From a virus (taxonomy: Duplodnaviria; Heunggongvirae; Uroviricota; Caudoviricetes): a stretch of DNA of 22,590 bases. How positions within the stretch are numbered: the stretch's first letter is position 1; each line of letters starts with the position of its first letter. The notes beneath the pieces are model-generated. The model was not told where the DNA came from. It worked only from the letters and a program-made list of their open reading frames with translations, and ran no database searches. Positions 1,009-22,590 of this stretch are shown one piece after another. Where the stretch lies: the IMG/VR virus record IMGVR_UViG_2585427750_000023, positions 1 through 22,590 of that record. One strand, given 5' to 3'. The position numbers were made by a program, and so were the translations under genes.

Positions 1009-1083
1009 GTCCTCTTAGTTAAATGGATATAACGAGCCCCTCCTAAGGGCTAATTGCAGGTTCGATTCCTGCAGGGGACACCA
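1009..1083 (+). tRNA. argW: tRNA-Arg (anticodon CCU), integration target of the prophage
   Basis: 75-nt cloverleaf read by hand: acceptor stem GTCCTCT/AGGGGAC (one G-U), anticodon stem AGCCC/GGGCT with loop CTCCTAA (anticodon CCT), T-arm GCAGG-TTCGATT-CCTGC, discriminator A plus encoded CCA; candidate -10 TATACT at 992..997. Confidence 0.93.
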
Positions 1084-1244
1084 TTTATCAGTTCGCTCCC
1101 ATCCGTACCAGTCCGCAAAATCCCCTGAATATCAAGCCTTCCGTAGATTCACAGTTCGTAATGGTTCGCGTCAGATCGTTGACAGCCGCACTCCATGACG
1201 GGTAAAAAGTGGATAAAATAATTTTACCCACCGGATTTTTACCC

Positions 1245-2402
1245 ATGCTCACCGTTAAGCAGATTGAAGCAGCAAAGCCGAAAGAAAAACCATACCGCCT
1301 ACTCGATGGTAATGGCCTGTACCTTTATGTCCCTGTGTCAGGGAAAAAGGTATGGCAGCTTCGCTACAAGATTGACGGTAAGGAGAAAATCCTGACCGTA
1401 GGAAAATATCCGCTAATGACTTTGCAGGAGGCAAGGGATAAAGCATGGACTGCGAGGAAAGACATCTCGGTTGGCATCGATCCGGTAAAAGCGAAAAAGG
1501 CTTCGTCTAACAACAATTCCTTTAGTGCGATTTACAAGGAATGGTACGAGCACAAGAAGCAAGTCTGGTCAGTAGGCTATGCAACTGAACTTGCAAAAAT
1601 GTTTGATGACGACATTTTACCTATCATCGGCGGCCTTGAAATTCAGGATATTGAGCCGATGCAACTGCTGGAAGTAATCCGCAGATTTGAAGATCGCGGC
1701 GCAATGGAGCGAGCCAACAAAGCACGCAGAAGATGCGGCGAGGTTTTCCGTTACGCTATTGTCACTGGTAGGGCTAAATATAACCCGGCACCTGACCTTG
1801 CAGACGCCATGAAAGGATACCGCAAGAAGAACTTCCCGTTTCTTCCTGCAGACCAGATCCCGGCATTCAACAAAGCACTGGCAACATTTTCAGGAAGCAT
1901 CGTATCGCTCATTGCGACCAAAGTTTTACGCTACACAGCCCTAAGAACGAAAGAGCTTCGTTCCATGCAATGGAAGAACGTCGATTTTGAAAACAGGATT
2001 ATCACTATCGACGCCAGTGTGATGAAGGGACGCAAAATTCATGTGGTTCCTATGTCAGACCAGGTGGTTGAACTTCTCACTACGCTAAGCTCAATCACCA
2101 AACCAGTATCAGAGTTTGTTTTTGCCGGACGCAACGATAAGAAGAAGCCAATCTGCGAGAACGCGGTGCTACTTGTGATTAAACAAATCGGCTATGAGGG
2201 TCTGGAAAGCGGTCACGGATTCAGGCATGAATTCAGCACGATTATGAACGAGCACGAATGGCCTGCTGACGCTATTGAAGTGCAACTTGCACATGCCAAC
2301 GGCGGATCTGTGCGCGGGATTTACAACCATGCTCAGTATCTAGATAAGCGCAGAGAAATGATGCAGTGGTGGGCGGAATGGCTTGATGGGAAGGTGGAGT
2401 GA
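1245..2402 (+). CDS. intS: Prophage tyrosine integrase (P4/CPS-53 IntS-like, N-terminal DUF4102-type arm-binding domain)
   Basis: 385-aa ORF from ATG 1245 (MLTVKQIEAAKPKEKPYRLLDG...), recognised as IntS-type integrase; directly downstream of argW in the same orientation. The ORF-track start at 1209 is a GTG extension and is not preferred. Confidence 0.88.
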   Translation: MLTVKQIEAAKPKEKPYRLLDGNGLYLYVPVSGKKVWQLRYKIDGKEKILTVGKYPLMTLQEARDKAWTARKDISVGIDPVKAKKASSNNNSFSAIYKEWYEHKKQVWSVGYATELAKMFDDDILPIIGGLEIQDIEPMQLLEVIRRFEDRGAMERANKARRRCGEVFRYAIVTGRAKYNPAPDLADAMKGYRKKNFPFLPADQIPAFNKALATFSGSIVSLIATKVLRYTALRTKELRSMQWKNVDFENRIITIDASVMKGRKIHVVPMSDQVVELLTTLSSITKPVSEFVFAGRNDKKKPICENAVLLVIKQIGYEGLESGHGFRHEFSTIMNEHEWPADAIEVQLAHANGGSVRGIYNHAQYLDKRREMMQWWAEWLDGKVE

Positions 2403-2581
2403 TCCACCTTAACTACTATCTAAGAGCACAAAGCCTTGCAATCCAGTGCAAAGCTTTGTGTGTCTCAGTTTTGTCTGCCATCACATGGAGATAATTAACC
2501 TATAACGCACATAGATGGTTGATGTTAATAAAAGCGCTGATCATCTCCTTAAGAGTATTTTAAGAGCATTTGAGTTATTAG

Positions 2582-2609
2582 CATGGAGGCGTATTGCCTC
2601 CATGTTTTT
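2582..2609 (+). terminator. Intrinsic terminator in the int-tailspike spacer (stem CATGGAGGC / GCCTCCATG, loop GTATT, then TTTTT on + strand)
   Basis: Perfect 9-bp inverted repeat 2582..2590 / 2596..2604 followed by T5 at 2605..2609; A-run on the other side, so it may act weakly in the tailspike direction too. Confidence 0.6.
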
Positions 2610-2610
2610 A

Positions 2611-4848
2611 CTACCATGTCGCATCTATGTAGAACGTTGGAGATGTAGTGGTGGACCCTTCAATCGATATTTGTCCTGTTGAAGCATTAATGGTGGCCAT
2701 TGCCATGCCAAATGAAACGCCATCAGCAGTGAACGGTACAGGGACATTTTTGGTTACTTTTGGTCTGCACCACCTCGGAAGCGTTAGAACAGTATTGCCA
2801 TTCGCAAATGAAGTGGCTGCCAGTTCAATATTAATTGAATTGGCAGTTAAACTTGACGGTGCCTGTACTGTTACGTTTGTTCCAGCCCACCATTGAACAG
2901 CTGCTCTTGGCGTGTAATCAACACGCGACCACCAGTCGATAATGGCAGAGCAGATAATTTCCGCATACAGACGATACCCTAACTGGCTTTGGTGAATGTC
3001 ATCACGCAGAAGTGGGTCGTATTGCGTGTTGAAATACTCTGGATATGGGGCCGGGAGCTGGTGAGTTGTTGTTACACAAATGACGTTATTGCCATATTTC
3101 ATCATCTGGCGTTTACCAGCTTCTCGCAACTCTGCGACACCGTCGTAGTTAGAAGATGGCTGGCCAGCCCCTCCAATAAATGACTGGCTATACCACATCC
3201 ACGGCTCAACCCAAACAGGGATACGACCAAGGCCATTGCAATATAAGACAAACTCATCTATCAATGACGCCATATAATCGCCGTTTTGGTTTGCCTGCCC
3301 TTCGTTAGTTCCGGCAACCATAATAACGATGTAAGCATCACCCGGCCCCTGAGCCTTCAGGAGATCTAACTGTTGCCTCATTGTCTGTCCGGCAACTGCC
3401 TTGTTTACAATGCTATGTGAACGGTGGCCGTTCGCTCCATCCATTAATTGCGGAATGTACGAGCTGAACGCGGAAATGAAATCCTCAGCTGTACTATCAC
3501 CGTGGATAAGGATATTAAGTGGAGGCTTACCGTGCACGCCATTATCAGAGGTGTAGCTGCATAATCCAGTTACACGCGCAGCACCTCCAGATGCCGTGGT
3601 CAGTGCAACAAACCCAACTTCGTATACATCCCCTACATCAGCAGTATCAAAGGGCAAACGTATCCCAACGCCATTCATCGTTATCTGCGCCCAGTTTTTA
3701 CCTTGCAGTGATACGCCAACGGTTGCTTTGCCCGGGGCGTACGACAGTAAACCTCCTGGCAGCGGGAATGGAGTTCCTTCTGCTACTGGACCACCAATTG
3801 GTTTCTGTCTATAAGACCACTGTGTAGCACCTGGTGCCCCATAGAACATCATCCAACCACCAGAGCATCGCAGAACAATCCCAACTTCTGAGGCGGCCTG
3901 AGATTCCATACGAATATGTGCAGAAATATGCTCTCCAATATCTATTGGTGCGAACAGGCCTGTTGTACGGTCAGTAGTTAAGGGGAAGATAGCTGCGCTA
4001 TCTGAGGATATGGTGACTTCACCTTCATAGAAGAACGTGTCACCATTTATGGAATAAACTTTACAATCTGACCATTCCACTCGCTTCATGCGAATAGGGT
4101 TTCGGTTGAGGATGGCCTGCTTAGCCAGATAATCCACTTCTCCACCGGTTGCTTTAAAGTTCAGGTGCGTAAATTCAAACGTACCCTCCCCCTCGTACTG
4201 CAACGATTTAAACAGTGAGTACAGATCACTGTCGAATCTCAGGGTGACATTTTTATCAATGATTACTTTACTGTTCGCAAGGAAAGAAGCGTTAGCAGCT
4301 GTAGACGGTACGGTGTACACCATCTGATTTTTTGAATGATTAGAGAAGTAAACATACCCGTAGGTCGCAACACTATCGCGCCACGCCTGGACTACGTTAG
4401 AATTATCATAACTTGGAATTTTTGTGATCGACTGCAAAACAAGATCTTCCTGTGAGATAGCTCCGTTTACCAGATTAACACCTCCTTGAGATGCAAGATC
4501 TTGCCTGAGTTGGTCAGGGTCATACTTCAGCACATTCGAAAAATAGAACTGCTGCGCACCATACGCATCATAAACAGCCATAGAATGGCCTTGCACGGTT
4601 ACGAATTTGGCAATCTGTCCGTTATATACCGGATATCCAGCAGCGTTAATGATGATTGGTTGCGAAACAGGAACGTGAGAACCATCTTCGTTCTCTACAT
4701 AAACCTGAATCTGGTTTTCAGTATTTACCGGGTCAGTGTCAATTTTACCGATATAAATTTTGCCATTGGCTACGGCTTTAAAAGAACGCGCCATAGTGAA
4801 GAGTTGCGAAGGCATCGATACGATCACATTGGCTGTAATGTCTGTCAT
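2611..4848 (-). CDS. Tailspike protein: P22-family head-binding N-terminal domain fused to a divergent receptor-binding region containing an SGNH/GDSL-hydrolase (esterase) motif set
   Basis: 745 aa; N-terminus [11 protein letters not shown]...[20 protein letters not shown]...[13 protein letters not shown] matches the conserved P22 gp9 head-binding domain; further downstream [11 protein letters not shown] (aa 447-455), GTNE (513-516) and DDIH (616-619) match SGNH blocks I, III and V; RBS GGAG 8 nt upstream of ATG. Confidence 0.85.
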
Positions 4849-4906
4849 TTAATTTGCTCCAGAGACAAGGAATCGCCGCAGCGTGGCCACGGTGAATTTT
4901 GGGCAT

Positions 4907-4929
4907 AAAAAAACCCAGCCGAAGCTGGG
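4907..4929 (-). terminator. Rho-independent terminator between ant and tailspike (minus strand: CCCAGC-UUCG-GCUGGG followed by U7)
   Basis: Perfect 6-bp GC stem 4914..4919 / 4924..4929 with CGAA/UUCG tetraloop, run of 7 A on + strand (U on - strand transcript) at 4907..4913, about 20 nt downstream of the ant stop. Confidence 0.75.
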
Positions 4930-4948
4930 TCGTTGCGTTGGTTATCTG

Positions 4949-5827
4949 TCAGTAGTTATGTACTGAAGGAGGTAATTCTTTATTCTTAAGTCTCATCCAT
5001 GCGGAAAGATTCGTTGGTCCGTCTGGCTCATTAATATCAACATCTCGTGTGTGGTTTATTAAAACGTCTCTCGCCATTCCGATAACATACGAGAATTCAT
5101 GACCGTAGTCGTAGCATCTTCCGGAATAGTTCGATTGAATTTGTTTTAATGCCGGATACAGTTCGCGGAATAATGCCTGTGAACGGTTAGCATAATCCCA
5201 TAGCCATACAAGGCTGTTTGCTTCTTTTGCAGAAAGCTCGTTTGCTTTCTTCTCTTGTTTGCCGATAAACTCGCCTTCAAGCACTACCCTGTGGATGTAC
5301 TCTACGGCCAGCGGGATTTGTTCAATTGAAAGTTCATCAATGCTGTCAATACCAAAACGCTGATGAACCATATTGTATGCATCGTCATAGCGAAGTCCTT
5401 TCTTTCCTACCAGCATGTTTACTGCATCGCGTAGCGGCGTTCTTTCCTCAACAGTGGTTTTCTTGCCTTTCACATACTCGCCATGTTTGCGAATTGAAGG
5501 TAGAACTTCTGCTGTTACCCACTTGCGGAATTTGTGCGGGACCGAACCTTTATTGACAGCATCGCGGCAGCGCAGAACCAATGTATACATACCTGATTCG
5601 CTCACAATGCTTAGATTCTGCTCACCACCAAGGGTGTAACTTAAAGTTACTCCCTTTTCATCGTCATCAAGTGCAGTAAGCGCCTTGCGTGAGTTAGTCA
5701 GGGTTAAAGCATCACAAACATCTTTTGCTACAAACCACGGCTCACCGCATTTGTTGATGACGAGGATTTCACTGTCGCCGAATTTGAAGATGGTGAAATC
5801 GTTTTGTGCCTTTGCTATACTTTTCAT
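4949..5827 (-). CDS. ant: Antirepressor Ant (Bro-N domain N-terminus, P22 Ant-like)
   Basis: Bro-N signature [28 protein letters not shown] at the N-terminus; preferred start ATG at 5827 with AGGA 9 nt upstream; the ORF-track extension to 5893 begins with TTG and is less likely. Confidence 0.8.
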
Positions 5828-5895
5828 GTCAATATTTCCTAATCCGATTTGTTGATACCGAAGCCCTGACTGTTCCCGCAGTTGGGGCTTCAACT
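5828..5895 (+). ncRNA. Candidate sar-like antisense RNA covering the ant ribosome-binding site (hypothesis)
   Basis: Extended -10 TGcTATACT on + strand at 5813..5821 predicts a start near 5828 directly opposite the ant start; an 11-bp hairpin at 5862..5889 is fully paired only on the + strand transcript (two G-U pairs that become mismatches on the mRNA strand); predicted length about 68 nt. Confidence 0.3.
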
Positions 5896-6093
5896 TTCTG
5901 CTCTATCAGTTATATCTTTCCCTTCATATACTTCACCTATATTGCTAATGCTGGCAGAACATCCAAGATGCTTGTATCTTATGATGTCCAACACGCAGTC
6001 ACTACACAGCATCCGACCTGTTTCTTTAGAGTAAATGTATGTTTGATCAGCGTCTGATTCGCTAATGCCGCAGAAACAACATTCTTTACTCAT
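5890..6093 (-). CDS. Hypothetical small zinc-ribbon-like protein (two CxxC pairs) encoded between arc and ant
   Basis: 67-aa [12 protein letters not shown]...RMLCSDCV with Cys pairs about 21 residues apart; SD GAGGGG 8 nt upstream; start ATG overlaps arc stop in an ATGA. Confidence 0.6.
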
Positions 6094-6230
6094 ACCGTTA
6101 TCCCCTCTCTCTTCAGGCTGTCCATCACCCGTTTAATTACTTCTGCACTAAATGAGCGACACTCCTCCTTTGCTTTTTCTTCAAGAATTTTTTCTAGCTT
6201 CTCTGGCATACGCAGTGTTTTAACCTTCAT
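6090..6230 (-). CDS. arc: Arc-like ribbon-helix-helix transcriptional repressor (below the ORF-track size cutoff)
   Basis: Hand-translated 46-aa [49 protein letters not shown], resembling P22 Arc (..FNLRWPREV..NGRSVNSEIYQRVMESFKKEG..); SD GGAGG 5 nt upstream of ATG at 6230. Confidence 0.75.
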   Translation of the reverse strand: MKVKTLRMPEKLEKILEEKAKEECRSFSAEVIKRVMDSLKREGITV

Positions 6231-6242
6231 TGTATCCTCCGT

Positions 6243-6317
6243 TGTATGTGGTACGCATACATAGTATTTAGGTACGCATTGATAGTCAATAGATACCTAC
6301 ATATCCTGTGGTAAAAA
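6243..6317. promoter_or_regulatory. Divergent immI control region: Pant-like promoter (minus strand -35 TTGACT 6284..6289, 17-bp spacer, -10 TACTAT 6261..6266), Pmnt-like extended -10 (TGgTAAAAA 6309..6317, + strand), and two operator-like dyads
   Basis: Dyad 1 TGTATG-N7-CATACA at 6243..6261 over the predicted Pant start; dyad 2 AGGTA-cgc-ATTGA-tag-TCAAT-aga-TACCT at 6270..6298 over the Pant -35; 9-bp direct repeat GGTACGCAT at 6250 and 6271. Confidence 0.55.
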
Positions 6318-6335
6318 ATTATTCAGGATGCGCCG

Positions 6336-6584
6336 ATGTCTGATCGTAAGTACAAAAACCCTCAAGTGAATCTGAGGCTTCCTGTAGAGATAAAGGAACG
6401 TCTTATTGAACTGGCTGAGGCTAATTCTCGTTCATTAAATGCTGAGATGGTCGCGGCACTTGAAGCGTGGACCGAAAAAAATAAACACATTCAAGCACTA
6501 GACCTTGCAACTATAGCATCACGATTGATAGATCTTGAACACGATGTTGAGACGCTAAAGACCATGTATGGTAAGGATAAATAA
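6336..6584 (+). CDS. mnt: Mnt-like ribbon-helix-helix repressor
   Basis: 82 aa; N-terminal RHH motif NLRLPVEIKERLIELAEANSRSLNAEMV similar to P22 Mnt/Arc; C-terminal helical tail; AGGA RBS; divergent from arc. Confidence 0.85.
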   Translation: MSDRKYKNPQVNLRLPVEIKERLIELAEANSRSLNAEMVAALEAWTEKNKHIQALDLATIASRLIDLEHDVETLKTMYGKDK

Positions 6585-6586
6585 AT

Positions 6587-6865
6587 ATGACAGATACCAA
6601 AGTGAACTTCAGAGAAACCATCTTCAAGGACTCAAGTGATGCTGTAAATGAGTATGCTGATGGATTTGCTTACTCGTCTTTTGGGGATGTCGGAGCAAGA
6701 TTTGGTTCAATAGCATTTTTTAAGCATGTTTCAGACTGGGTTAATAATGAGGAGATTCAGCCAGTTAGATACCAAATTGCCAACATTCGCATGAGTGAAA
6801 ATCAACTTCTTGAACTGGCTAAGTATATAGTTTCTCAACACGAAGAATCAAAAAAATTAAGCTGA
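6587..6865 (+). CDS. Hypothetical protein, first gene downstream of mnt (start 2 nt after mnt stop)
   Basis: 92-aa ORF with AAGGA upstream inside the mnt 3' end; no recognisable motif. Confidence 0.55.
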   Translation: MTDTKVNFRETIFKDSSDAVNEYADGFAYSSFGDVGARFGSIAFFKHVSDWVNNEEIQPVRYQIANIRMSENQLLELAKYIVSQHEESKKLS

Positions 6866-6872
6866 CAGAGCC

Positions 6873-7433
6873 ATGATTTCTTTCCCTGCCGTAAATGCTG
6901 ATCATGCAGCGGAGAAAAAGAGAACTCTTGGTCGTATGGGGTCGACAGGTGGCATAGGAGAAAAGTCCAATGCTTCGCCTCCAGTTACCAAGAATGATAT
7001 AACCAAAAACAATAATATCGCTTATCTTGGAAAACAATACACTGAGGAGCATGCTATGGGCAGCCCATCAAGAGAAGAGATTGACGCGAAGCTTGGTCAA
7101 AACAAAGCAGAAATTGAGTTAATATCTGCTAACATGCGCGCTGAAATTTCAGCTTTCAGAGAATTCCAATCTAAGCAATTTACAGCTATGAATCAGTCCC
7201 TTAATGAAATTAAGGGACAGATATTCGCTAGCAATGGCGAAGTTGCAGGGCTCAAAGGTCAAATTGATGGCATTAAAACATCCATGACCGCGACCCAATG
7301 GCTCGTTGGTGCGGTTCTCGCTATGCTTGCGGTAATCATAACGCTTCCGCAGATTCAATCTTACTTCAAGGTTTCTGAGCCGACTGCGAAGGAAGCCGCT
7401 AGTGAAACCCATGATACCAAAATAAAGCAGTGA
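6873..7433 (+). CDS. Hypothetical coiled-coil protein with a single C-terminal transmembrane anchor; alternative start at 7056 (125 aa) with SD GAGGAG
   Basis: Heptad-like region EIDAKLGQNKAEIELISANMRAEISAFREFQ..., then hydrophobic helix WLVGAVLAMLAVIITLPQI; the 6873 start has a weak RBS, the internal ATG at 7056 has GAGGAG 6 nt upstream. Confidence 0.5.
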   Translation: MISFPAVNADHAAEKKRTLGRMGSTGGIGEKSNASPPVTKNDITKNNNIAYLGKQYTEEHAMGSPSREEIDAKLGQNKAEIELISANMRAEISAFREFQSKQFTAMNQSLNEIKGQIFASNGEVAGLKGQIDGIKTSMTATQWLVGAVLAMLAVIITLPQIQSYFKVSEPTAKEAASETHDTKIKQ

Positions 7434-7461
7434 TCTTACCAATAAAACCTGGGAGGACAAC

Positions 7462-7689
7462 ATGAAGCAATGGCTCATCATAATTGCTGTTTTTTTGCTC
7501 ATTTACACTGTTTTCCCAACATTAAAAGCACCAATGCAAATAATTTCACTAGCAATAATTGCGATTGGTGCTTTCATTGCTGTAGCCGTACTTGTGTTTA
7601 AGGTTTTAAAGTTTTTAGTTTGGCTATCAAAAGATGATGGATGCAAAGTTCATCAAGAAAAAGAAGGCAAAATAACCAAAGTTGACTAA
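7462..7689 (+). CDS. Hypothetical small membrane protein (two predicted TM helices)
   Basis: 75-aa ORF with strong RBS GGGAGG 6 nt upstream; two hydrophobic segments (about aa 5-22 and 26-52); stop overlaps the convergent gp16 stop. Confidence 0.6.
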   Translation: MKQWLIIIAVFLLIYTVFPTLKAPMQIISLAIIAIGAFIAVAVLVFKVLKFLVWLSKDDGCKVHQEKEGKITKVD

Positions 7690-9809
7690 CTGTCACTAGC
7701 GAGCCATGTAATAATCCCCGTGCGGGCAATGGTTTTTGCTTCATCTGTTGATAAGGTTTTCTCCCATCTCTTAAATGCCCCAGATTGCATCAGTTTCCTT
7801 TCTATTACGCGTCTCACTTCTGCTCTGTCTACTGGTGCGTTTTGCAGGCGAAATAGCATTGATTTAAACTCAGGAGAAGACAGTAGAGCATCAGCAGCCT
7901 TTATCCTGCTTGTTTTCCCTGACATCAATGCGGACGTTATCACCCCTGTTGCGCCTACACCAGGAAGACCAGATAAGCTTGTAATACCTTCCGCCGCAGC
8001 AGCTTTTGAGGCTATTCCATAAATTTTTGCGAGACTACCCTTTTCTTTCAGAAAGTTATTAACTTGCTGATCCACAAGACTACTAGCATACTGCTTACCA
8101 GTATTGAGTCTATTCATAGCCTTAGCTGCTTGATAAATCGTATCAAGGCGCTTTGATGCATCTGTGCCAATAGCATCACGGAGAGCCTTCATATTGGCCC
8201 CATTGCGTGACATTCCGTTATACCATTTTACAAATCCATCAACTCCTAATTGCTGACCAGGTGATTTGGCATAGCTGGTAAATGCTTTATTCATTGAGGT
8301 GAGCGCAACTTCCTGCCGCATATCCTTTGGAATCGACTTCATTAATTGCCTAAAGTCGCCACCGTTTCCTTTTGCCATATTAACAACAGCACTTTCAACT
8401 TTTGGAATTGCTGATTGCTGAAGTTTTCTACCCAAGACGGTTACAGCATCATCTTCAATGGATTTTCGTTTTTTTACCAACTCCTTACCAAGCGTCCATA
8501 ATTCCCCTGCGCCATATTTTTCTGCGACAGCCTGTTGGTCATCTGTTATGGCTGCATATAACTTTTTAAGAACACCTGTTTCTTCATCCTTGAATGGACC
8601 AGAGCCTTTGCCAATAGCTTGTCCAACCTGCTTTCTAGCGAGATCTAAACGCCCATACGTTGGCAAGGTGTTTGGATCAAGTCGGTTCAATGTCCGCTTC
8701 ATTATTGGAGATAATTCATCAATTCCACCTATGTCATCAGCAAAATCCTCTAAAAAATTCAATGTATTAGTTGCCTCAATCCGGTCTCTTACAGGAACCT
8801 TTTCGGCAATTTTGTTGTAGATGTTATCTGACTGATTTTGTAATGATGAAATGGTTTTATCAAAATTATCTGCAAGCCTGTCAGAAACCAGTTGCTTATC
8901 AAGGCTTCCCCCAAATGAAGTTATCATTTCATCAGCTTTTCTTCCTAATTCAGTAATAAAACGCTTATGCGCCTCACTAATCTCCGTTCCAGGAAGACTT
9001 GCCACTGCATTATCAAGAGCCCTGACAGCAGGATTATTAGAGATCATGCCTGGAGTGGCATAATTTTCCAGTTCTAGCTCACGAATAGCATTTATCGCGT
9101 TAAAATCAGGATTAACTTCATCGGCGAAATCTTGAATAGCACGTTGCCCACCAATAAATTTATTATCCATTGCGCCAGCAGCTTTCTTTAACGTTGCTTT
9201 AGATGATTTACTACCCATCCCTACGGATGAACGATAAATATCCCCGGCACTATTTTTAATTTTTCCTGCAATCTTCCCAAGCGCTGGACCAACAATCTCG
9301 GCTACAGGGCCAGCCACAGCACCAATAGCAGCTCCGGAAGCAACATCGCTATTTGTTCCATTGGCTACAATAGCCCCTTCTCCAGCACCAAGCCCTGCGG
9401 CGGCAGCCAGCCTTGCCGCCCCTTTCGGAACCTGAGAAATAATCCCACCACCACTAACAAATGGCGCTGCTTGTCCAACAAACTCACCAACATCTTGTGC
9501 GGTTGATGGTTTTGCCGCTAACTTCTGCTGTAGAGACTGAATTGCGGCTTGCTCTTCTGGTGTCATATCCTGAAACAGGCCAACACCTTTACCAACATCC
9601 ATCAATCCACTGAGAACGCCATACATAAAACGGTCGAAACCGTTAGCATTATTAACAACATTTTCCTGTCTGGAATTTTCCTCTGGTGAAACCAAAGGAG
9701 ATTGCTGCTGTTCTGGTTGGGAATCAAGCACAAAGCCATCAGGAAGTTGTGAGTTATCAGGCTGTTCATCCAGAACAAACCCCTCTGGTAAACCTACATT
9801 GGTTGCCAT
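7686..9809 (-). CDS. Ejection (injection) protein, P22 gp16-like
   Basis: 707-aa ORF at the gp16 position in P22 synteny (last gene of the 7/20/16 trio); Gly/Ala-rich segments; start overlaps gp20 stop. Confidence 0.75.
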   Translation of the reverse strand: MATNVGLPEGFVLDEQPDNSQLPDGFVLDSQPEQQQSPLVSPEENSRQENVVNNANGFDRFMYGVLSGLMDVGKGVGLFQDMTPEEQAAIQSLQQKLAAKPSTAQDVGEFVGQAAPFVSGGGIISQVPKGAARLAAAAGLGAGEGAIVANGTNSDVASGAAIGAVAGPVAEIVGPALGKIAGKIKNSAGDIYRSSVGMGSKSSKATLKKAAGAMDNKFIGGQRAIQDFADEVNPDFNAINAIRELELENYATPGMISNNPAVRALDNAVASLPGTEISEAHKRFITELGRKADEMITSFGGSLDKQLVSDRLADNFDKTISSLQNQSDNIYNKIAEKVPVRDRIEATNTLNFLEDFADDIGGIDELSPIMKRTLNRLDPNTLPTYGRLDLARKQVGQAIGKGSGPFKDEETGVLKKLYAAITDDQQAVAEKYGAGELWTLGKELVKKRKSIEDDAVTVLGRKLQQSAIPKVESAVVNMAKGNGGDFRQLMKSIPKDMRQEVALTSMNKAFTSYAKSPGQQLGVDGFVKWYNGMSRNGANMKALRDAIGTDASKRLDTIYQAAKAMNRLNTGKQYASSLVDQQVNNFLKEKGSLAKIYGIASKAAAAEGITSLSGLPGVGATGVITSALMSGKTSRIKAADALLSSPEFKSMLFRLQNAPVDRAEVRRVIERKLMQSGAFKRWEKTLSTDEAKTIARTGIITWLASDS

Positions 9810-11128: not shown

Positions 11129-11137
11129 GATTACCCC

Positions 11138-11833: not shown

Positions 11834-11835
11834 GG

Positions 11836-12992: not shown

Positions 12993-14410
12993 TACTCAAT
13001 CCTTATCTGGCAGCCAGACAGAGTGACAGGTGACTTCGTGATAACGCGCAATTTGAAGCCAACATTTTTCCTGATGCGCCCGACTCGCTTCCACAAAACG
13101 CGCTTGTCGTAAACGAACGGTTCATTCTGCTCAATCATCTGCTCACGACCGTAATTTATGCCGTCAGTGGTTGCAGAGAGGAACAGGCGGTCGGCGTACT
13201 GCGCAACGCCAGTTGACGATTCAACTTCAAGGTCGAAAACTCTGGCGTTATCCGCTTTGAACAGTGGAGTAAACAGCATGTGTTCTTGCTGTAGCCCATA
13301 CTGGCTGCTGATGTCGAACTGCAATTTCCCGGTCACGGATTCCAGCTTATCGCCGCACGTTATCTGATTGCCTTCGTAAATGAAGTCGATAGCGCGGTAC
13401 ACATCGTCATACAGTCCTGTTTTCAGCACACACCATTGCGGACCATTGGCGCTTGAAGATGCGTCGTACACGAGGACGTGACGCGTAAGATGGATAATCA
13501 GCAGTTCATGCGCATCAAATCGCAGCGATTCCATCACACCATCAGCCAGTTCATCAGCAGTGTAGGAGCGTAGTATTTTCTCAATGCTCGCGCTGGCGAT
13601 TGGTGATACCTGACCGGAACCGATGATATACACAGACGGCGCACCTGTTGCCGGATTGCTGATGAACGCATACGAATCAGCGAATGGCGTTTTGCAGTAA
13701 GTCCCGGCGATGCCTTTTTGCACCATCAGCGATGGCTGTGCGACATACAAAGCGGCACCAACAGTGGTTGCACCTGTCAGGGAAAAATATTCAATCGTCG
13801 ATGAACCAAAGCAGACGATGAAGTCTCGCCATGTTCCGATGCCGATAATACCGTCAGGCTGAGACTCGGCACGATATTGTGCACTGTATCGGTCAGGGTG
13901 CGATTCGTCTTCAAGGTCAGTGATAAACCATGAATCAGTTCCGTCTTTTGACCACGCATAACGCCCACGTAAGCGTGTAATGTCGCGGACTGAACCTAAC
14001 TCATACTGAGTGAATCCGCTGTCTGTAGGCCAGTTTGAGACTGTTTTAACCGTGCCATCATAGCGATACTCGACCAGTTGACCATTAACGCCTACCGCCT
14101 GAGATGTTCGACCATGCGCCATTGATACGCGACCACTTCCGGCAACATCACCGACCTCGCTTTCGCCCTTATACAACTTGCCACCGCAAACGCGATAAAC
14201 AGCATTCTGCGCCATGTTGTACTCGACACCGCGCGATACACCATTCACATCAGAACGTTTGGCAATGCCCGGGAATGAGCGAAGATATCCGCTGCTGTTC
14301 AGGATTTCTTTGGGCGTAGCCAGCATATTCACTGGCAGATAGTCGATATAGTCGGCGTTTCGAAAGTCTTTGCCGACACCTTTCATAAGCGGAAGTTGCT
14401 GAATCGGCAT
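12992..14410 (-). CDS. Tail hub / head-completion protein (P22 gp10-like)
   Basis: 472 aa; N-terminus [49 protein letters not shown] matches recalled gp10. Confidence 0.85.
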
Positions 14411-14419
14411 TTATTCACC

Positions 14420-14881
14420 TCACGTACTCGGATCATCTTTCTCGATGTAAAACCGATTCCACGTAAACGCGCTTTTGTTACCACTACCGCGAGGCATGTC
14501 ATTTCGCCGCTCAAGTGGTGGTATTTTGGTTAAAGCGATGCAAATTGTCTGGTATGCACTGTCAGCAGCGGTAAGGAGAGCGTCTGACGGCTGAATGACG
14601 TTATCCATGCACACTTGCACAGCGAGTTTCAAGGCGACGCCATCATTTGCCCATGCAGGGATACCTGAATCATCGTCAGGTAACGGCATGATGCCGTTTT
14701 CTGTATCAGCAAACTGATATCCAAGCTCGATACCTTTAGCCTGCCATGCTGCCATCATGTCTTCGAGGTCATTAATGGCATCTTCAATTGCCTGAGGGTC
14801 AGCATCTGTCAACGTGGCATTGGAATACAGCCCGGCTTTTCGTAAAGCCTTAAGAACGAGATCACCCTTCGTTTTCGCCAT
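14420..14881 (-). CDS. Head-to-tail adaptor protein (P22 gp4-like)
   Basis: 153 aa; TKGDLVLKALRKAGLYSNATLTDADPQAIEDAINDLEDMMAAW matches recalled gp4 pattern. Confidence 0.83.
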   Translation of the reverse strand: MAKTKGDLVLKALRKAGLYSNATLTDADPQAIEDAINDLEDMMAAWQAKGIELGYQFADTENGIMPLPDDDSGIPAWANDGVALKLAVQVCMDNVIQPSDALLTAADSAYQTICIALTKIPPLERRNDMPRGSGNKSAFTWNRFYIEKDDPST

Positions 14882-15050
14882 CTTCTTCCGCCTTAGCCAC
14901 TTTATGCTTCGTTGCGGTTTCTTCAGGAGTTTTTACCCAGCCTTTTTTCAGGTGAGATTTAACTTCTTCGTCATCAACAATGATGTAATCGACAGCAAAC
15001 TGACCGCAGGTGATCATGTTGCCAGGCTTATAGAGCATTGTTCGTGCCAT
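14862..15050 (-). CDS. Hypothetical small protein between coat and gp4
   Basis: 62-aa ORF from ATG 15050 with strong RBS GGAGAAG; the ORF-track 75-aa version starts with TTG inside the coat terminator hairpin and is not preferred; overlaps the gp4 start by 20 nt. Confidence 0.5.
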   Translation of the reverse strand: MARTMLYKPGNMITCGQFAVDYIIVDDEEVKSHLKKGWVKTPEETATKHKVAKAEEDGENEG

Positions 15051-15091: not shown

Positions 15092-16345
15092 TTACTGCCC
15101 GGCAATAACGATGCCCGTATATTCAGGAACCAGTACAGAGCAACCGTACAGAGTGGTGAAACGCGCAGTGGTTACACCTTTGATGTGGTCGAAGGCGTAA
15201 GACATGATCAGCGTAGCGCCCTGCTCGGTGGTTGCTGTCATTACCTGTGGCCCCTGACCAGTCGGGAACGCCAGTTTGCCGTACATCAGCTCAACAGAAC
15301 CATCAGCCCAGAACAGGTTAGCCGGTGCGGCATTTTTGTTGAGAATGGTAATTGCTGCACCATTTGCCGCGTTAGCATCAACGTTTGCATATGGTCGGCT
15401 GGCGACATCCGCGTTGTCAGGCGGCAGAATTTTCGGGGAGATAGTTACTGTCGTTCCGCTTACTGCCAGAACGCGGAATACCTGCGGCTGCCCGGTGGTA
15501 TCTTTGGTGATCTGGTGTACGGAATTCACGCCAGCAATGGTGAACGCATCGCCAACCTGCAAACCAGATGCAGATACCGTAATGGTCCCCTGTCGGTTAT
15601 CCACTGGCATATCGTTGGCATCTTTCGCTTCAACCTTGTGCGCAGGTTCAGCCGCCAGCGTCAGGGAAGTTGCTGTACCCTTCGGAACACGACCAGAAAT
15701 ATCGGTCTTGTAGCTATCGAAGGACGCAACCGGAGGGATCTGCGCTTTTTCGTATGCTGTCAGGGTTGCGCCCTGAGCATAGGCACGGTGACCAAGCTCG
15801 CCAGCAAGGTCTTTGTAGTTGAAGGGGTTCCAGAAAGAGCGACGGTTGATACCCTGAGGTACACCAATCGCCGTCATGGTGGCATCAATACCTGCCGCAC
15901 AGTTCCACAAATCACGGCCCTGTGAACCTGTGGTTGAGTCAGCCATCGTGATCACGTTAGTAGCACGCTGCGTGACCATGGAAATCAGGTCAGAGTCAAT
16001 CTGTGCAGCAAGGCGCATACCTGCGGCGCGACCAGCTTCAGTTTTATGTTCCGGGTCACGCATTTCACGCGCATCCAGAGTGTACAGAATGTTTTTCGGC
16101 TCCTTGAACACAGAAGGAACAAGGCGCTGAACCAGTGCTGTTGGCGTTTTGCCGCTGAGGTCTAGGCCTTCCTCAATGTTCATGTGGTAATGCTGCGGAC
16201 GATACAGAACATCACCTGCTCGCTGCATTGCTGTATCACCGGGACGGAATTTTTTAGCGTTACGGGAAACTACGCAGGCGGCCTCAAAGCCTTCAACGTA
16301 GTTTTCGAACATGATTTCAAGGTCTTTTGCTAATTGGTTAGCCAT
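15092..16345 (-). CDS. Major capsid (coat) protein, P22 gp5-like
   Basis: 417 aa; C-terminal half (..RPYANVDANAANGAAITILNKNAAPANLFWADGSVEL..) resembles recalled P22 coat; position between scaffold and gp4. Confidence 0.88.
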   Translation of the reverse strand: MANQLAKDLEIMFENYVEGFEAACVVSRNAKKFRPGDTAMQRAGDVLYRPQHYHMNIEEGLDLSGKTPTALVQRLVPSVFKEPKNILYTLDAREMRDPEHKTEAGRAAGMRLAAQIDSDLISMVTQRATNVITMADSTTGSQGRDLWNCAAGIDATMTAIGVPQGINRRSFWNPFNYKDLAGELGHRAYAQGATLTAYEKAQIPPVASFDSYKTDISGRVPKGTATSLTLAAEPAHKVEAKDANDMPVDNRQGTITVSASGLQVGDAFTIAGVNSVHQITKDTTGQPQVFRVLAVSGTTVTISPKILPPDNADVASRPYANVDANAANGAAITILNKNAAPANLFWADGSVELMYGKLAFPTGQGPQVMTATTEQGATLIMSYAFDHIKGVTTARFTTLYGCSVLVPEYTGIVIAGQ

Positions 16346-16363
16346 GCTTAATGCTCCGATAGG

Positions 16364-17257
16364 TTATTTTTTTGCCTTTTTAGCGGCGAAATACGGCGTC
16401 CAGTCACCAGTTTCCAGCGCCCTGGCTTTCAGTTTGTCGAGGTTATTGATTACTGCGCCGTTGCTCCCCTTAACTGTCGGGGTTGTGGCTGCCGTGGTTT
16501 TTGCTTTTGGCATGATTCTGGCCTTCGATTCGATACGTTCCAGCAGACGACCAATTGCTACGGGGTTGGTAGCTTCTGCCAGTTGCTTGCGCAGTTCAGC
16601 GTTGCGACCGAGTGCCAGAACAACGATTTCCGGCTTCTCTGACTCAAACAGGATCGCGTTTTGTGTCTCGATGGGGATTTCCTCGAGTACGGCCTGTTCA
16701 GCTTCCTGATAGCCAGGAACCTTGAGAGCCTTAACACGTTGCTGATATTTGGATAATCGCTCTTGATAGGCAGCCTGAAGCTCCTGCTCCTTCTGCTTGC
16801 GAGCCATCTCCTGTTGCTGGTATTTGCCGTTGTCCTCCGCCCACTTAGCCATGCGTTGCTGGTAGATTTCTTCATCGAAACCGATGTCCTCATCATCCAG
16901 TTTTGGCATTCGCGGTGGTTGAGTGATTACCGGCTGCTGCTCGACGGGTTTCTGAGACTGACGCATCAGCTCTTTCAGTTCGCGGTCTTTCTCTTTAATC
17001 GTCTTGCGCAGGTGTTTTACCAGTCCATGCTCTGCGCCATCTTCGCTGGTTGGCGAATCCAGCTTTTCGTCACCAAAGTAGAATTCCTGCTCTGATTCGT
17101 CGTCATCAGTTTCAGTAGCTTCCTCTGTATCATTGCCGGAGGACTCACTGCCATCTTCTGTTTCGACTTCTTCAGCCAGTTCGACATCATCAGGAATCTG
17201 CTCTGACGCGTCGGTTTCGATTTCAACTTCTGGTGTGTTTTCTGCCATCTGGTCCAT
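16364..17257 (-). CDS. Scaffolding protein (P22 gp8-like)
   Basis: 297 aa; acidic N-terminus, long charged helical middle, basic C-terminal helix-turn-helix-like tail; position between portal and coat. Confidence 0.8.
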   Translation of the reverse strand: MDQMAENTPEVEIETDASEQIPDDVELAEEVETEDGSESSGNDTEEATETDDDESEQEFYFGDEKLDSPTSEDGAEHGLVKHLRKTIKEKDRELKELMRQSQKPVEQQPVITQPPRMPKLDDEDIGFDEEIYQQRMAKWAEDNGKYQQQEMARKQKEQELQAAYQERLSKYQQRVKALKVPGYQEAEQAVLEEIPIETQNAILFESEKPEIVVLALGRNAELRKQLAEATNPVAIGRLLERIESKARIMPKAKTTAATTPTVKGSNGAVINNLDKLKARALETGDWTPYFAAKKAKK

Positions 17258-17347
17258 TTGTTACCCCTGTTTACTCGATGTTCAGCCCATCGGAAGGCAA
17301 TAGGGTGCCAGGCCTCATAAAGACAGCCATTGCACGTTATGGGTTAA

Positions 17348-19546: not shown

Positions 19547-19547
19547 A

Positions 19548-20963
19548 TCAACCTACACCACAAGGAATTGAGTAACTGGAATAGTCGGGTTGCGCAGCCG
19601 ACTCCGGGCAATGCATACACATCATCAATGCATCAGCCAGGTTAGGAGATGGAATACCGAGCTTCTGCTTCATTTCGACCTTAGTCATAAGCTCCAGCTT
19701 CCCGTTGTTATTGAATTTGCGCTGAATCTGCGTCAGTTCTGCAAACAGCTTCTCCAGCATCTTCTCGCCTATTGCTTCTTTGTCGAAACTCAGCATGTCG
19801 TCGGGGTCTGCATACTCACCGTGGACAACCGCCCGATATGTCAGATAAAGCCTGTCAGCCAGCGCGTAATAGAATTGCGCTCGCTTATTGCGGAACACAT
19901 CACCAATAGTGCGAACGTTGTCGCCCTGTACGACTTCATCAGCCCATGCTCCGGCCTGATACGGTGCATCTTCATCGAATGGCGATTCGCTGCCCTTGAA
20001 CATCGTGGCGGTGATTTTCTTGCCGGAGAACGCTTCCGTTGTCTGTCTGCGTAGCCCGGCACCAACACCATCACCATCCCACAGGTAATGGTCAGCGCCG
20101 TCTTCAATCGCCAGCGAAGTAGCCCAGTCAGCACCCTCGTTGATGTCCATCAGCAGGCCTTCGGCAATGCGCTTAACAACCGAACCGTGACGCGATGCAT
20201 AACCTTTAGCATCCGGCCCTGTATCTGACGGGTCATGTGCAGAAACAACAGCGCCTTTCGCTTTCCATCCTAGTTTCTTGTGCGCATCGGTTGCGGCTTC
20301 AAGCCATTCACGTTTGATGATTGCCATATCACTTGCGCTTACTGGCTCACCAAGCCAGATGTGACGATACAGGGTCGGATTTCTGCGTTTACACTCTTCC
20401 ATCTCCAGACGGAGAACTTCAGGAAAGTGCGGGTTGTCGGTGTAGTTCACCGTCAGCAGGCAAATATCATCTGGAGGATTTACGGCGAATCGCTGATAGG
20501 TATCGTCGAGGATGTTTTTCGGGTTAAAGCTCACCCATATTTCGGAAAATGGCTTGCGGATGGTTGGTATCAGGATATCCCATGATTCCTTCGTTACCGC
20601 TTCCGCTTCCTCCACCCAGCAGATATCAATGCCTTCTAGCGATTTAATCTTCGTCGGGTTGTTTTTGATGCCGTAGAACATGAATTCAGCATTCGTTCCG
20701 AGATGACGAATCATTGAACGCTGAATTTCAAACTCAGCCGAATACCCTTCCCGCTCTATGGTGTCTTCAAGCAACCGGATTACCGAATCGCTGATACTGT
20801 TTTGCAGTTCACGAGCACAGAGAATACGCACTGGCTGCCGACGCGCCGCTTCAACAAGCAGCCTCGCAATTGCCCATGATTTACCGCTACCTCGACCGCC
20901 TTTGGCGACTTTGTAGCGATGCGCCTCAATGAACGGTTCAAAGATAGGATTAATCGAGGTCAT
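19548..20963 (-). CDS. Terminase large subunit (Sf6 gp2-type)
   Basis: 471 aa; Walker A KGGRGSGKS near N-terminus, nuclease-type C-terminal half; N-terminus MTSINPIFEPFIEAHRYKVAKGG recalled as Sf6 gp2; ATGA overlap with small terminase. Confidence 0.9.
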   Translation of the reverse strand: MTSINPIFEPFIEAHRYKVAKGGRGSGKSWAIARLLVEAARRQPVRILCARELQNSISDSVIRLLEDTIEREGYSAEFEIQRSMIRHLGTNAEFMFYGIKNNPTKIKSLEGIDICWVEEAEAVTKESWDILIPTIRKPFSEIWVSFNPKNILDDTYQRFAVNPPDDICLLTVNYTDNPHFPEVLRLEMEECKRRNPTLYRHIWLGEPVSASDMAIIKREWLEAATDAHKKLGWKAKGAVVSAHDPSDTGPDAKGYASRHGSVVKRIAEGLLMDINEGADWATSLAIEDGADHYLWDGDGVGAGLRRQTTEAFSGKKITATMFKGSESPFDEDAPYQAGAWADEVVQGDNVRTIGDVFRNKRAQFYYALADRLYLTYRAVVHGEYADPDDMLSFDKEAIGEKMLEKLFAELTQIQRKFNNNGKLELMTKVEMKQKLGIPSPNLADALMMCMHCPESAAQPDYSSYSIPCGVG

Positions 20964-21385
20964 TTTCCGAATAGAGTGCTCATCGGTGATGTTTCAATCT
21001 GGATTGCGCCGCCGTCTTTGCCGACAAGCTCATTAGTTACCTTGTCGCCATACTTACGTGGATTCATTCGGGCCAGCGCCCATTTGCGGGTATCAACGCG
21101 AAGTCTTGCCTTTGCCACCTCAGCAGCATCTGGAATCGCATTGTCAGCAATTTCGAATATCTCTTCGAAAATAGAATCAGCTCGTGCCTCAGTTGCCTTC
21201 GCGTACTTGTCTCTAAATTCGTCATGCTCTGACAGCCAGCGAAATACAGTAGCCTTTGCTGGCATGCCGGGGCGCTTGCAAACCTTAACCAGACTTTCCC
21301 CGGAGGCAAGCAGCGCACAGATATCATCAGCCACCTCCGGCAGGTAATCCGAAGGGCGACCGACGTTCTTTTTCTCAGTCGCCAT
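20960..21385 (-). CDS. Terminase small subunit (Sf6 gp1-type)
   Basis: 141 aa; GRPSDYLPEVADDICALLASGESLVKVCKRPGMP helix-turn-helix N-terminus recalled as Sf6 gp1-like; immediately upstream of and overlapping the large terminase. Confidence 0.85.
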   Translation of the reverse strand: MATEKKNVGRPSDYLPEVADDICALLASGESLVKVCKRPGMPAKATVFRWLSEHDEFRDKYAKATEARADSIFEEIFEIADNAIPDAAEVAKARLRVDTRKWALARMNPRKYGDKVTNELVGKDGGAIQIETSPMSTLFGK

Positions 21386-21464
21386 ATTGATTATTTCCCT
21401 TCTGCTTGCTTATCCCATTCATCGCGGAATTTGGATGGGTTGTCGAAACCTTGAGTTGCCATGT

Positions 21465-21707
21465 TTATGCTCCGGTAGTGAACAGGTCTAACGCTTCCTT
21501 CGATTTACGCACCGCTTCGATAGTGCGGTTCGTGATATCTGAATTAGCGCCGCCTGACTGGAAGTGAATTTTGAATAGCTCAAGCTTCAGCACGTCAGTG
21601 CCAATGAACTGAAATGCTTCTTCTGCGGCTGCGTTCTGGTTCATGACCAGTTTGTAAATCTCTAACTTGAATTTCTGTTCTTCAGTCATGGGAATAATCT
21701 CTGCCAT
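21465..21707 (-). CDS. Hypothetical small protein at the P22 orf80 position (between rha and terminase)
   Basis: 80-aa ORF with GGAG RBS 7 nt upstream. Confidence 0.55.
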   Translation of the reverse strand: MAEIIPMTEEQKFKLEIYKLVMNQNAAAEEAFQFIGTDVLKLELFKIHFQSGGANSDITNRTIEAVRKSKEALDLFTTGA

Positions 21708-22065
21708 TGTTGGCTCCGTTTATCCGTTAAAAGGGATATCAGTTAAGTTATCCCGTGTAGGGTATAAGCCATTGTCGAGACCACTCATTGAATGGTCTCT
21801 GCAATAACCGATGTCTTTCCATCAGTCCGCCACCACAAAGAATCTTTTTTGCCATAAGGCAGGGGGTTCATCTTTCAGTGGCTGCCAGTGTTATTTCCCC
21901 ACTTACTGGCTTGGGTTGTTTCGCTGTACTGCCGTTAACTGGTGGCGCACAGATTTAGTTAAATCCGTTCTCGCCTGAACTATCTTTTACATACCCGGAT
22001 TGTGGGGATGTAAATCACGGTTTCATTATCAAGCCCACCAGTGGATGGGCTTTGTGATGGCATCT

Positions 22066-22590
22066 TCAATTAATCAGCAATTCGGGCTGCGTCACCTGCA
22101 AGATGTATTCATGCTCGACAGCCAGGACACGCTTCTCTTTCTTCCGTTCGTTCATTAACCGACTGCCGATCGTACCTTTCAGCTTTGAGCGTGTTTCTTT
22201 GATGGCGTAGCGGTGCTGCATTTCTTCGCCAATTGCCATGCGGCGGCTCAGTTGCTCTGCCATCCAGTTGAATGCCGCGATATAGCTCTCCTTGATTGCC
22301 GCAGCAGCTTTCCCGGTGAACCCCATCACAACCATGATCCAGCCATCTTTCGTCAGGCTGTACATCGGGCGAACCTTGCCCTGCTCATCGATATAATCAG
22401 CCGACGCAAAATTGCGTTGGCTAAACTCACGCGAGCAATCAGCCTTAACCTGCTCGATTTTCCTGAGAACATCACCGTGTCGCTTGCCGAAGTACTTGGC
22501 AATTTTTCTGGATGTGGTAACGACCTCTCCGTTTTTGGCTTGCACCATTTCTCGGAAGTCGAAGGCTGGAATAACTGAATGATTATTCAT
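22066..22590 (-). CDS. Rha-family phage regulatory protein; start codon lies exactly at the window edge, so completeness is uncertain
   Basis: N-terminal KIAKYFGKRHGDVLRKIE motif typical of the Phage_pRha domain; 174 aa to the in-window ATG. Confidence 0.7.
   Translation of the reverse strand: MNNHSVIPAFDFREMVQAKNGEVVTTSRKIAKYFGKRHGDVLRKIEQVKADCSREFSQRNFASADYIDEQGKVRPMYSLTKDGWIMVVMGFTGKAAAAIKESYIAAFNWMAEQLSRRMAIGEEMQHRYAIKETRSKLKGTIGSRLMNERKKEKRVLAVEHEYILQVTQPELLIN

Follow-up and report, generated by a model that had tools for sequence, protein, structure and literature searches.

The present study concerns a 22,590-nucleotide (nt) stretch of DNA, hereafter the window, which comprises positions 1 to 22,590 of IMG/VR virus record IMGVR_UViG_2585427750_000023. 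Positions 1069-22590 of the window very probably belong to a temperate P22-like podovirus (Lederbergvirus) integrated in the 3' end of argW in Escherichia coli, of which they form the late-gene half on the attL side. Phage-only DNA begins at 1084, and from this position to the end of the window all genes are P22-like phage genes, as judged by Pfam, PHROG and tblastn comparisons. The late operon, read on the minus strand from 21385 to 2611, follows the order small terminase subunit (TerS), large terminase subunit (TerL), portal, scaffold, coat, gp4, gp10, gp26, gp14, gp7, gp20, gp16, "ant moron" and tailspike; gene order, Pfam families and megablast together reveal the late-operon synteny of Lederbergvirus. 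The families P22_portal, P22_CoatProtein, P22_Tail-4, Phage_stabilise, P22_gp7, Inj_translocase and Head_binding were observed, and Pfam and PHROG assignments cover all virion genes. A database comparison had been suggested in a first-pass annotation of this DNA as a means of detecting a different lineage, and the closest genomes proved to be Lederbergvirus throughout, with phiv205-1, CUS-3, Kapi1, Sf101, Sf6 and HK620 as the top megablast matches. Another phage lineage or a non-phage island is ruled out by the Pfam and PHROG content and these best matches, and nothing was found that contradicts the identity of the element. The mosaic P22-like prophage at argW described in that annotation is therefore supported by Pfam, PHROGs and tblastn as well as by the tRNA and host context; the start of the element, placed there at 1009, has to be moved, as 1009 is the start of argW and the attachment (att) core begins at 1069.

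The element is a new combination; both its phage group and its attachment site are very well known. Every part of it is known, which is expected of P22-like phages. Little is at stake in its identification, as it adds one further recombinant to a well-studied and famously mosaic phage group. It is a clean case of module exchange at gene and domain boundaries, affecting TerS, the needle, the gp20 C-terminus with gp16, the "ant moron" and the tailspike receptor domain. The only features worth following up are the SGNH-type tailspike and the membrane open reading frames (ORFs) at the position of sieA. All features are listed in Table 1.

Attachment site and integration module

Several lines of evidence place the left end of the prophage at argW. 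The tRNA-Arg(CCT) gene is identical to K-12 argW, and the yfdC-argW-intS context is common to the window, E. coli PEC301, Nord122, CM2010-0578/1 and K-12. The 15-nt sequence CTGCAGGGGACACCA at 1069-1083 forms the 3' end of argW and equals the annotated attP core of both Sf6 and HK620; an attL is annotated at the same position in phiv205-1, and CTGCAGGGGACACCA extended by TT is the 17-bp att of phage Kapi1 (PMC8787464). No second copy of the core was found in the window with up to 2 mismatches allowed, and the only copy is that at 1069-1083. The attR must lie outside the window because the core is found once in it. A search for a direct repeat of the argW 3' end, proposed earlier as a way to locate the other end of the prophage, is thus negative here, consistent with that end being unseen. 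A general repeat search of the window returned short matches only, consistent with chance.

The integration genes are those of the recombination module shared by KplE1, HK620, Sf6 and CUS-3: a core in the argW 3' end is followed by an IntS-type int that adjoins attL in the orientation of the tRNA, with a predicted promoter inside attL. The int product is 98-99% identical to the integrases of Sf6, CUS-3 and HK620 and shares 382 of its 385 amino acids (aa) with K-12 IntS. The gene starts 161 nt past the tRNA, at the ATG at 1245, which yields 385 aa as in CUS-3 and K-12; a GTG start at 1209 was not borne out. A promoter-like site at 1195-1222, upstream of int, is a consensus match only. In the KplE1 module, the intS promoter (PintS) has been shown experimentally to overlap attL, the excisionase TorI acts from the opposite end, and the module is common to CUS-3, HK620 and Sf6 (PMC2951348). 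Likewise, attP of Kapi1 lies between int and xis, which places these genes at opposite ends of the prophage (PMC8787464). The deduced placement of attP upstream of int and of xis at the opposite end agrees by homology with the published arrangement of KplE1, HK620, Sf6 and Kapi1 (PMC2951348, PMC8787464), an arrangement that is already textbook for the group. Here, xis would be expected at the unseen end, next to attR, because attP sits between int and the excisionase gene in KplE1-type modules.

As had also been recognised from the sequence, int points away from the tRNA and towards the tailspike gene, which is transcribed in the opposite direction. Only about 200 nt (2403-2610) separate these two convergent genes, as in PEC301. 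No O-antigen-modification or other lysogenic-conversion genes are present in this interval, whereas it carries oac in Sf6, gtrABC in P22 and CM2010, and neuO in CUS-3.

Module composition and completeness

Every protein of the window was compared with Sf6, CUS-3, P22 and HK620 using tblastn and blastp, and the values below are amino-acid identities. TerS is 91% identical to Sf6 gp1 and to the HK620 protein, but only 30% to that of CUS-3, and has no match in P22; it is not a small terminase of the CUS-3 type and is the sole element of the packaging and head block that resembles Sf6 and not CUS-3. Residues 1-453 of TerL are 100% identical to Sf6 gp2; over its full length, TerL is 100% identical to that of CUS-3, and it is 98% identical to that of HK620, with no match in P22. 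The Sf6-type packaging genes proposed in the first-pass annotation were thus confirmed. Sf6, HK620 and P22 have an hkbN/orf59c gene between TerS and the DUF2560 gene; the window lacks a homologue of it and has only a 79-nt spacer (21386-21464) instead.

The same annotation had joined these packaging genes to head-completion genes, a portal C-terminus and a needle of the P22 type. Several observations favour such a typing, since TerS and TerL are of the Sf6 type, the needle is knob-less with 233 aa like that of P22, the immI region is organised in P22 style, and the C-terminal 133 aa of the portal align end to end with P22 at 49%, above the rest of the protein, whereas with Sf6 they align over 69 aa only. 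However, these 133 aa are 100% identical to CUS-3, and the whole portal is 99% identical to CUS-3 compared with 35% to P22 (HK620, 56%; Sf6, 55%). The identities to CUS-3 and P22 are 100% and 41%, respectively, for gp4 (Sf6 and HK620, both 42%), 95% and 29% for the coat protein (no tblastn match in Sf6 or HK620), and 95% and 62% for the needle (HK620, 92%; Sf6, 51% over the N-terminal 141 aa only), and the scaffold is 99% identical to CUS-3, 33% to both Sf6 and HK620, and without a match in P22. The gp10 protein is nearer to the coliphages (99% to each of Sf6, CUS-3 and HK620) than to P22 (93%) and is diagnostic of no type. The per-protein identities to CUS-3 refute the typing with P22, which retains hardly any credibility. 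On sequence grounds, gp4, coat, scaffold and portal are instead classed as a CUS-3-type head module, and the needle as a CUS-3/HK620-type needle that resembles P22 only in being short (233 aa) and knob-less.

The genes from gp14 to gp16 show a different pattern. The gp14 protein is 99% identical to CUS-3 and HK620, 98% to Sf6 and 93% to P22, and is not diagnostic of type. The gp7 protein is closest to Sf6 (94%), followed by HK620 (88%), CUS-3 (83%) and P22 (83%). The N-terminal 209-250 aa of gp20 are 77% identical to Sf6, 47% to P22 and 44% to both CUS-3 and HK620, while its C-terminus, like gp16, belongs to none of the four reference types. In other words, gp20 is a chimera with an Sf6-like N-terminal 250 aa and a C-terminus that travels with this type of gp16 (100% identity in strain 100117). 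The gp16-position protein is 21-24% identical to the CUS-3, HK620, P22 and Sf6 proteins, with significant matches to CUS-3 (E 1e-9) and HK620 (E 3e-6) only; it has no Pfam family, and its PGAP name is "hypothetical protein". By sequence, it is classed here as a fifth type at the gp16 position, and its divergence fits the report that published gp16 types are mutually only 22-26% identical (PMC10883804).

A mosaic map, obtained by comparing 400-nt tiles with known phages and prophages, gave each segment a near-identical counterpart (about 92-100%) in some known prophage. The host flank, int and tailspike (1-4800) match PEC301 at 96-100%, and the segment from ant to the gp20 N-terminus (4800-10400) matches the prophage of strain 100117 at 96-100%, reaching 100% from approximately 5200. 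For the head genes, the counterparts are in CUS-3, Nord122 and CM2010 (88-100%, mostly 96-100%); the TerS segment has counterparts in Sf6, HK620 and Nord122, and the rha segment in CM2010 and phiv205-1.

We propose an origin that would account for this arrangement. The phage very probably integrated into the argW 3' end via an IntS/KplE1-type recombination module, with a core of 15-17 bp, identical in attP and the argW 3' end, that regenerates the tRNA; int is thereby left at the left end with its own predicted promoter overlapping attL, and by analogy a TorI/HkaC-type excisionase would be encoded at the unseen right end. The virion module is a recombinant of parts known from other coliphages and prophages, comprising CUS-3-type gp4, coat, scaffold and portal, a TerL common to CUS-3, Sf6 and HK620, an Sf6/HK620-type TerS, a CUS-3/HK620-type knob-less needle, an Sf6-like gp7 and gp20 N-terminus, and a distinct gp16 that goes with a gp20 C-terminus of its own. 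The set is completed by a full P22-style immI switch and a conserved tailspike head-binding domain fused to a predicted SGNH-esterase receptor module.

The position of the right end of the window follows from the assembly. Window positions 1-14848 are 100% identical to contig JOQD01000001.1 of E. coli GCA_000713895.1, identified by an exact tailspike look-up, and by coordinate offset the window ends at about 330,071 of 330,158 in this contig, approximately 87 bp before the contig end. The window stops at rha because the draft contig ends there. No lysis, replication or immC genes are among the genes of the window, in agreement with the first reading of the sequence; the statement made there that intactness cannot be judged from the window also stands, because the contig ends only about 87 bp further on. 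A public collection lists the identical TerS protein in 1,850 blocks and the identical Rha protein in 12,794, lambda-like prophages included; in many of the latter, the DNA of rha and its lysis-side flank is about 98% identical. This repeated DNA probably broke the short-read assembly, and the authors of the Kapi1 study met the same assembly problem at the argW locus (PMC8787464).

A complete prophage, which would then be inducible, is probable on this analysis because the ORFs are intact, IS elements (insertion sequences) are absent, and relatives with the same right end continue into intact genes. Two points weigh against the overall interpretation. The attR, xis, immC, replication and lysis genes would all lie past the contig end, so that completeness is an extrapolation; in addition, coverage of 80% or more of the window in one place was found in none of the phage records or complete RefSeq E. 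coli genomes, and therefore this exact mosaic has not been seen as an isolated viable phage. The main competitor is a defective remnant like CPS-53/KplE1 of K-12, in which the late genes were kept and the early region or attR was deleted or rearranged. K-12 does carry a 10-kb cryptic remnant at the same att site, other argW prophages have decayed (phiv205-1 has transposases in the tailspike region, and Nord122 has a truncated tailspike), and the early half is out of view beyond the contig break. Despite these precedents, the 21.5 kb of phage DNA contain only full-length ORFs, equal in length to their homologues, and neither IS elements nor frameshifts. Relatives that share its right end (L028 at 99.8%, and CM2010) run on into intact lysis, Q, nin and replication genes, and the commonness of identical Rha and of the ~98% identical DNA in lambda-like prophages leads one to expect the contig to break at the rha/lysis block. 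A remnant is accordingly rated as unlikely, although it deserves more weight than an assembly chimera, in which the assembler would have merged short reads of two P22-like prophages of the same genome into a single contig. The contig comes from a draft assembly and breaks within repeated phage DNA, and P22-like prophages also use other sites, e.g. beside torT in strain 100117. However, each junction falls at a gene or domain boundary with all reading frames intact, and several are also present in independent genomes. Among these, PEC301 has the int-tailspike junction, strain 100117 has immI-cargo-gp16-gp20, Nord122 has both orf75-gp16 and the combination of CUS-3-type heads and an Sf6-type TerS, and L028 has TerL-TerS-DUF2560-rha. 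Moreover, the exact tailspike protein is recorded in a second contig. A chimera is judged very improbable for these reasons, and a complete prophage remains the preferred interpretation.

Table 1. Features of the window, with positions, strand and supporting evidence
Feature	Position	Strand	Evidence or remark
yfdC, host gene, formate/nitrite-transporter family	1-933		Pfam Form_Nir_trans
argW, tRNA-Arg(CCT), host gene; 3' end is the attachment site	1009-1083	+	ARAGORN; Rfam tRNA, 63.4 bits
attL core CTGCAGGGGACACCATT	1069-1085		single copy in window
attL phage arm with int promoter region	1084-1244	+	157/161 nt identical to the experimentally mapped KplE1 (CPS-53) attL of K-12
int, IntS-type tyrosine integrase, 385 aa	1245-2402	+	Pfam Arm-DNA-bind_3, Phage_int_M, Phage_integrase
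Tailspike, 745 aa	2611-4848	-	PF09008, 220 bits; phrog_17606, full length
Putative intrinsic terminator after ant, position of P22 t-ant	4912-4931	-	8-bp GC-rich stem, then TTTTTT
ant, antirepressor, 292 aa from ATG	4949-5827	-	Pfam Bro-N and P22_AR_C; phrog_245
sar, antisense RNA	5829-5895	+	Rfam RF00262, full model, 71.6 bits (gathering score 43)
67-aa Cys-rich ORF (CxxC...CxxC, zinc-ribbon-like), between arc and ant	5890-6093	-	phrog_7150, full length (unknown function)
arc, 46-aa ribbon-helix-helix repressor	6090-6230	-	Pfam Arc, 37 bits; 38% to P22 Arc
Overlapping divergent promoter-like sites, positions of P22 Pant/Pmnt	6261-6307	-/+	TTGACT-17-TACTAT (-), TTGATA-17-TATCCT (+); consensus matches only
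mnt-like Arc-family repressor, 82 aa	6336-6584	+	Pfam Arc, 40 bits
Three "ant moron" cargo ORFs (92, 186, 75 aa)	6587-7689	+	phrog_4231, phrog_5820, phrog_7294, all of unknown function
gp16-position ejection protein, 707 aa	7686-9809	-	phrog_6704, full length; weak phrog_770 "DNA transfer protein"; syntenic position
gp20 ejection protein, 444 aa	9794-11128	-	Pfam Inj_translocase
gp7 ejection protein	11138-11833	-	Pfam P22_gp7, 438 bits
gp14	11836-12291	-	Pfam DUF2824
gp26 tail needle, 233 aa, knob-less	12291-12992	-	
gp10 head-completion (tail hub) protein	12992-14410	-	Pfam Phage_stabilise, 992 bits
gp4 head-completion protein	14420-14881	-	Pfam P22_Tail-4
62-aa ORF between coat and gp4	14862-15050	-	96% to CUS-3 stretch including ECRS218_0017
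Coat protein	15092-16345	-	Pfam P22_CoatProtein
Scaffolding protein	16364-17257	-	99% to CUS-3
Portal, 732 aa	17348-19546	-	Pfam P22_portal, 566 bits
TerL	19548-20963	-	Pfam Terminase_3
TerS	20960-21385	-	PF20901 Sf6_terminase, 151 bits (cut-off 27)
DUF2560 protein, homologue of P22 orf80 / HK620 hkbM	21465-21707	-	Pfam DUF2560; 95-96% in all four references
rha-family regulator, 174 aa	22066-22590	-	Pfam Phage_pRha; window ends at rha start codon

Tailspike and immI region

The first 113 residues of the tailspike form a P22 head-binding domain; the receptor module that follows consists of an SGNH esterase domain between two beta-sandwiches, the second of which is C-terminal. The head-binding domain is 75-94% identical to those of the four reference phages (75% to P22), while the remaining ~620 residues have no match in P22, Sf6, HK620 or CUS-3, consistent with the early remark that the tailspike is "different again". 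A tblastn search of 50,697 phage records found the receptor module nowhere above 29% identity (best match, an Aeromonas phage), and among Protein Data Bank (PDB) sequences only the N-terminal head-binding domain was matched, with no solved phage esterase tailspike. The whole tailspike gene region was observed in 9 of 5,426 complete E. coli genomes, and 4 more carry the receptor module on another N-terminus. Across a large collection of proteins, at least four different N-terminal adaptors precede the module (PF09008, PF18668, PF03906 and PF12571), representing the P22 head-binding, TSP1/Gp66 N-terminal, T7 fibre N-terminal and tail-collar kinds.

The SGNH/GDSL domain spans tailspike residues ~445-630 and carries the block motifs I (GDS), II (G), III (GxN) and V (DxxH). 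These catalytic blocks are invariant in 34 aligned homologues with identities down to 24% and correspond, in full-length numbering, to G450-D451-S452 (I), G487 (II), G513-T514-N515 (III), and D616 and H619 (V). The score of the domain against PF13472 (GDSL_2), 19.7 bits, counts against the assignment because it is below the gathering score of 32.9; many homologues have a precomputed PF13472 match, and PGAP calls some of them "SGNH/GDSL hydrolase family protein". The AlphaFold2 model of the tailspike has a mean pLDDT of 89.6, and its top Foldseek matches, all with a probability of 1.00, are the CE2 esterase 2waa, the acetylxylan esterase 7toh, TesA and the sialic-acid esterase 7pzh. The target-normalised TM-scores are 0.6-0.76 for single-domain SGNH enzymes, revealing the SGNH alpha/beta/alpha fold in the predicted model. 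Judged from this model, the receptor module has an SGNH/GDSL esterase domain with a beta-sandwich on either side and is not a beta-helix glycosidase. The predicted structure suggests that the tailspike would act as a polysaccharide O-acetyl esterase that de-O-acetylates a surface polysaccharide. We tentatively hypothesize, with slightly less than even confidence, that it is a receptor-modifying enzyme and not a depolymerase, which recognises and de-O-acetylates the O-antigen or capsule of E. coli; if true, no such tailspike would have been characterised before in Lederbergvirus. No paper on an SGNH tailspike in a P22-like phage was found in the literature searched, and an SGNH module on a P22 head-binding adaptor would make the protein a tractable candidate for the study of non-depolymerising receptor recognition in P22-like phages.

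The interval between gp16 and the tailspike gene contains, by sequence comparison, a complete P22-style immI switch (mnt / arc-sar-ant). The P22-style organisation had been noticed from the letters, and mnt, divergent promoter-like sites, arc, sar (RF00262), ant and a strong predicted terminator are all present; the 67-aa ORF that separates arc from ant is the one addition. Ant is a chimera of two domains: its N-terminal Bro-N half is unlike P22, whereas blastp gives 85% identity to P22 Ant over the C-terminal 171 aa. Its length equals that of the strain 100117 homologue. The mnt product is 95% identical to that of CUS-3 and 32% to P22 Mnt. The sar RNA is encoded on the strand opposite ant, abuts the ant start codon and overlaps the 3' end of the 67-aa ORF. 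In P22, the sar antisense RNA regulates ant, and this type of antisense control appears to be conserved in the coliphage module. The 67-aa ORF overlaps the arc stop codon (ATGA) and is 100% identical to an unannotated stretch of CUS-3, but no match for it was found in Pfam or PADLOC.

The "ant moron", extending from gene 16 to the tailspike gene, has been described in ten types among sixteen genomes (PMC2629481). The cargo ORFs downstream of mnt have a GC content of 40% and are 100% identical to those of the strain 100117 prophage. The 186-aa ORF encodes a coiled coil and one C-terminal transmembrane segment, and the 75-aa ORF, with two hydrophobic segments, converges on gp16 and overlaps its stop codon, at the position of P22 sieA and HK620 hkcB. 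A PADLOC scan of the cargo ORFs, the 67-aa ORF and arc returned no match. The three cargo ORFs may have a superinfection-exclusion function, and the membrane ORFs at the sieA position could represent a new superinfection exclusion matched to the divergent gp16/gp20 pair.

Comparison with known systems

One of the closest known phages is CUS-3 (CP000711), which resides at argW in E. coli K1 RS218 and covers 58% of the window at 95.6% in megablast. The two share the att site, an attL flank that is near-identical from 1054, and int (99%), together with gp14, needle, gp10, gp4, coat, scaffold, portal and TerL at 95-100%, mnt, and the stretch of the 67-aa ORF. They differ in TerS, ant (47-48%), gp16 (24%), the N-terminal region of gp20 and the cargo ORFs; in addition, the receptor domain of CUS-3 is an endosialidase in place of the SGNH module, and CUS-3 carries a neuO region that has no counterpart here.

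Sf6 and HK620 resemble the element in the att core, int (98-99%), TerS (91%), TerL (98-100%), and gp10 and gp14 (98-99%), and Sf6 furthermore in gp7 and the gp20 N-terminus, HK620 in the needle. Unlike the element, they have a head of the Sf6 type (portal 55-56%, scaffold 33%, gp4 42%, coat unmatched in tblastn), other tailspike receptor domains and O-antigen modification genes adjoining int; Sf6 has a knobbed needle and no immI, and HK620 has immI remnants only.

P22 has its genes between TerS and the tailspike in the same order, and its immI region likewise consists of mnt, arc, sar and ant; similarity extends to the C-terminal part of Ant (85%), a 233-aa knob-less needle and the tailspike head-binding domain (75%). 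However, P22 has another integrase and att site, its TerS and TerL have no match here, its portal, coat and gp4 are only 35%, 29% and 41% identical, and sieA is replaced in the element by unrelated cargo ORFs.

The prophages of PEC301, 100117, Nord122 and CM2010-0578/1, and phage phiv205-1, each have at least one segment in common with the window at 96-100% nucleotide identity. PEC301 is similar in yfdC, argW, int and tailspike but has P22-type head genes, and Nord122 is similar in orf75, gp16, the head genes and TerS but has a truncated tailspike. The prophage of strain 100117 (NZ_CM128596.1, 3021701-3053522) adjoins torT and not argW, and has a knobbed needle and another TerS. No integrase was observed at its tailspike end, indicating a different integration module.

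For the tailspike, the relevant comparison lies outside the P22-like phages. An SGNH-esterase tailspike is known in another podophage, G7C (gp63.1). Esterase tailspikes of the Schitoviridae phages Moo19 and B2 are also reported (PMC11654681). In these proteins, as in the present tailspike, an SGNH domain replaces the beta-helix glycosidase of the receptor-binding protein; unlike them, the module observed here is mounted on a P22 head-binding adaptor.

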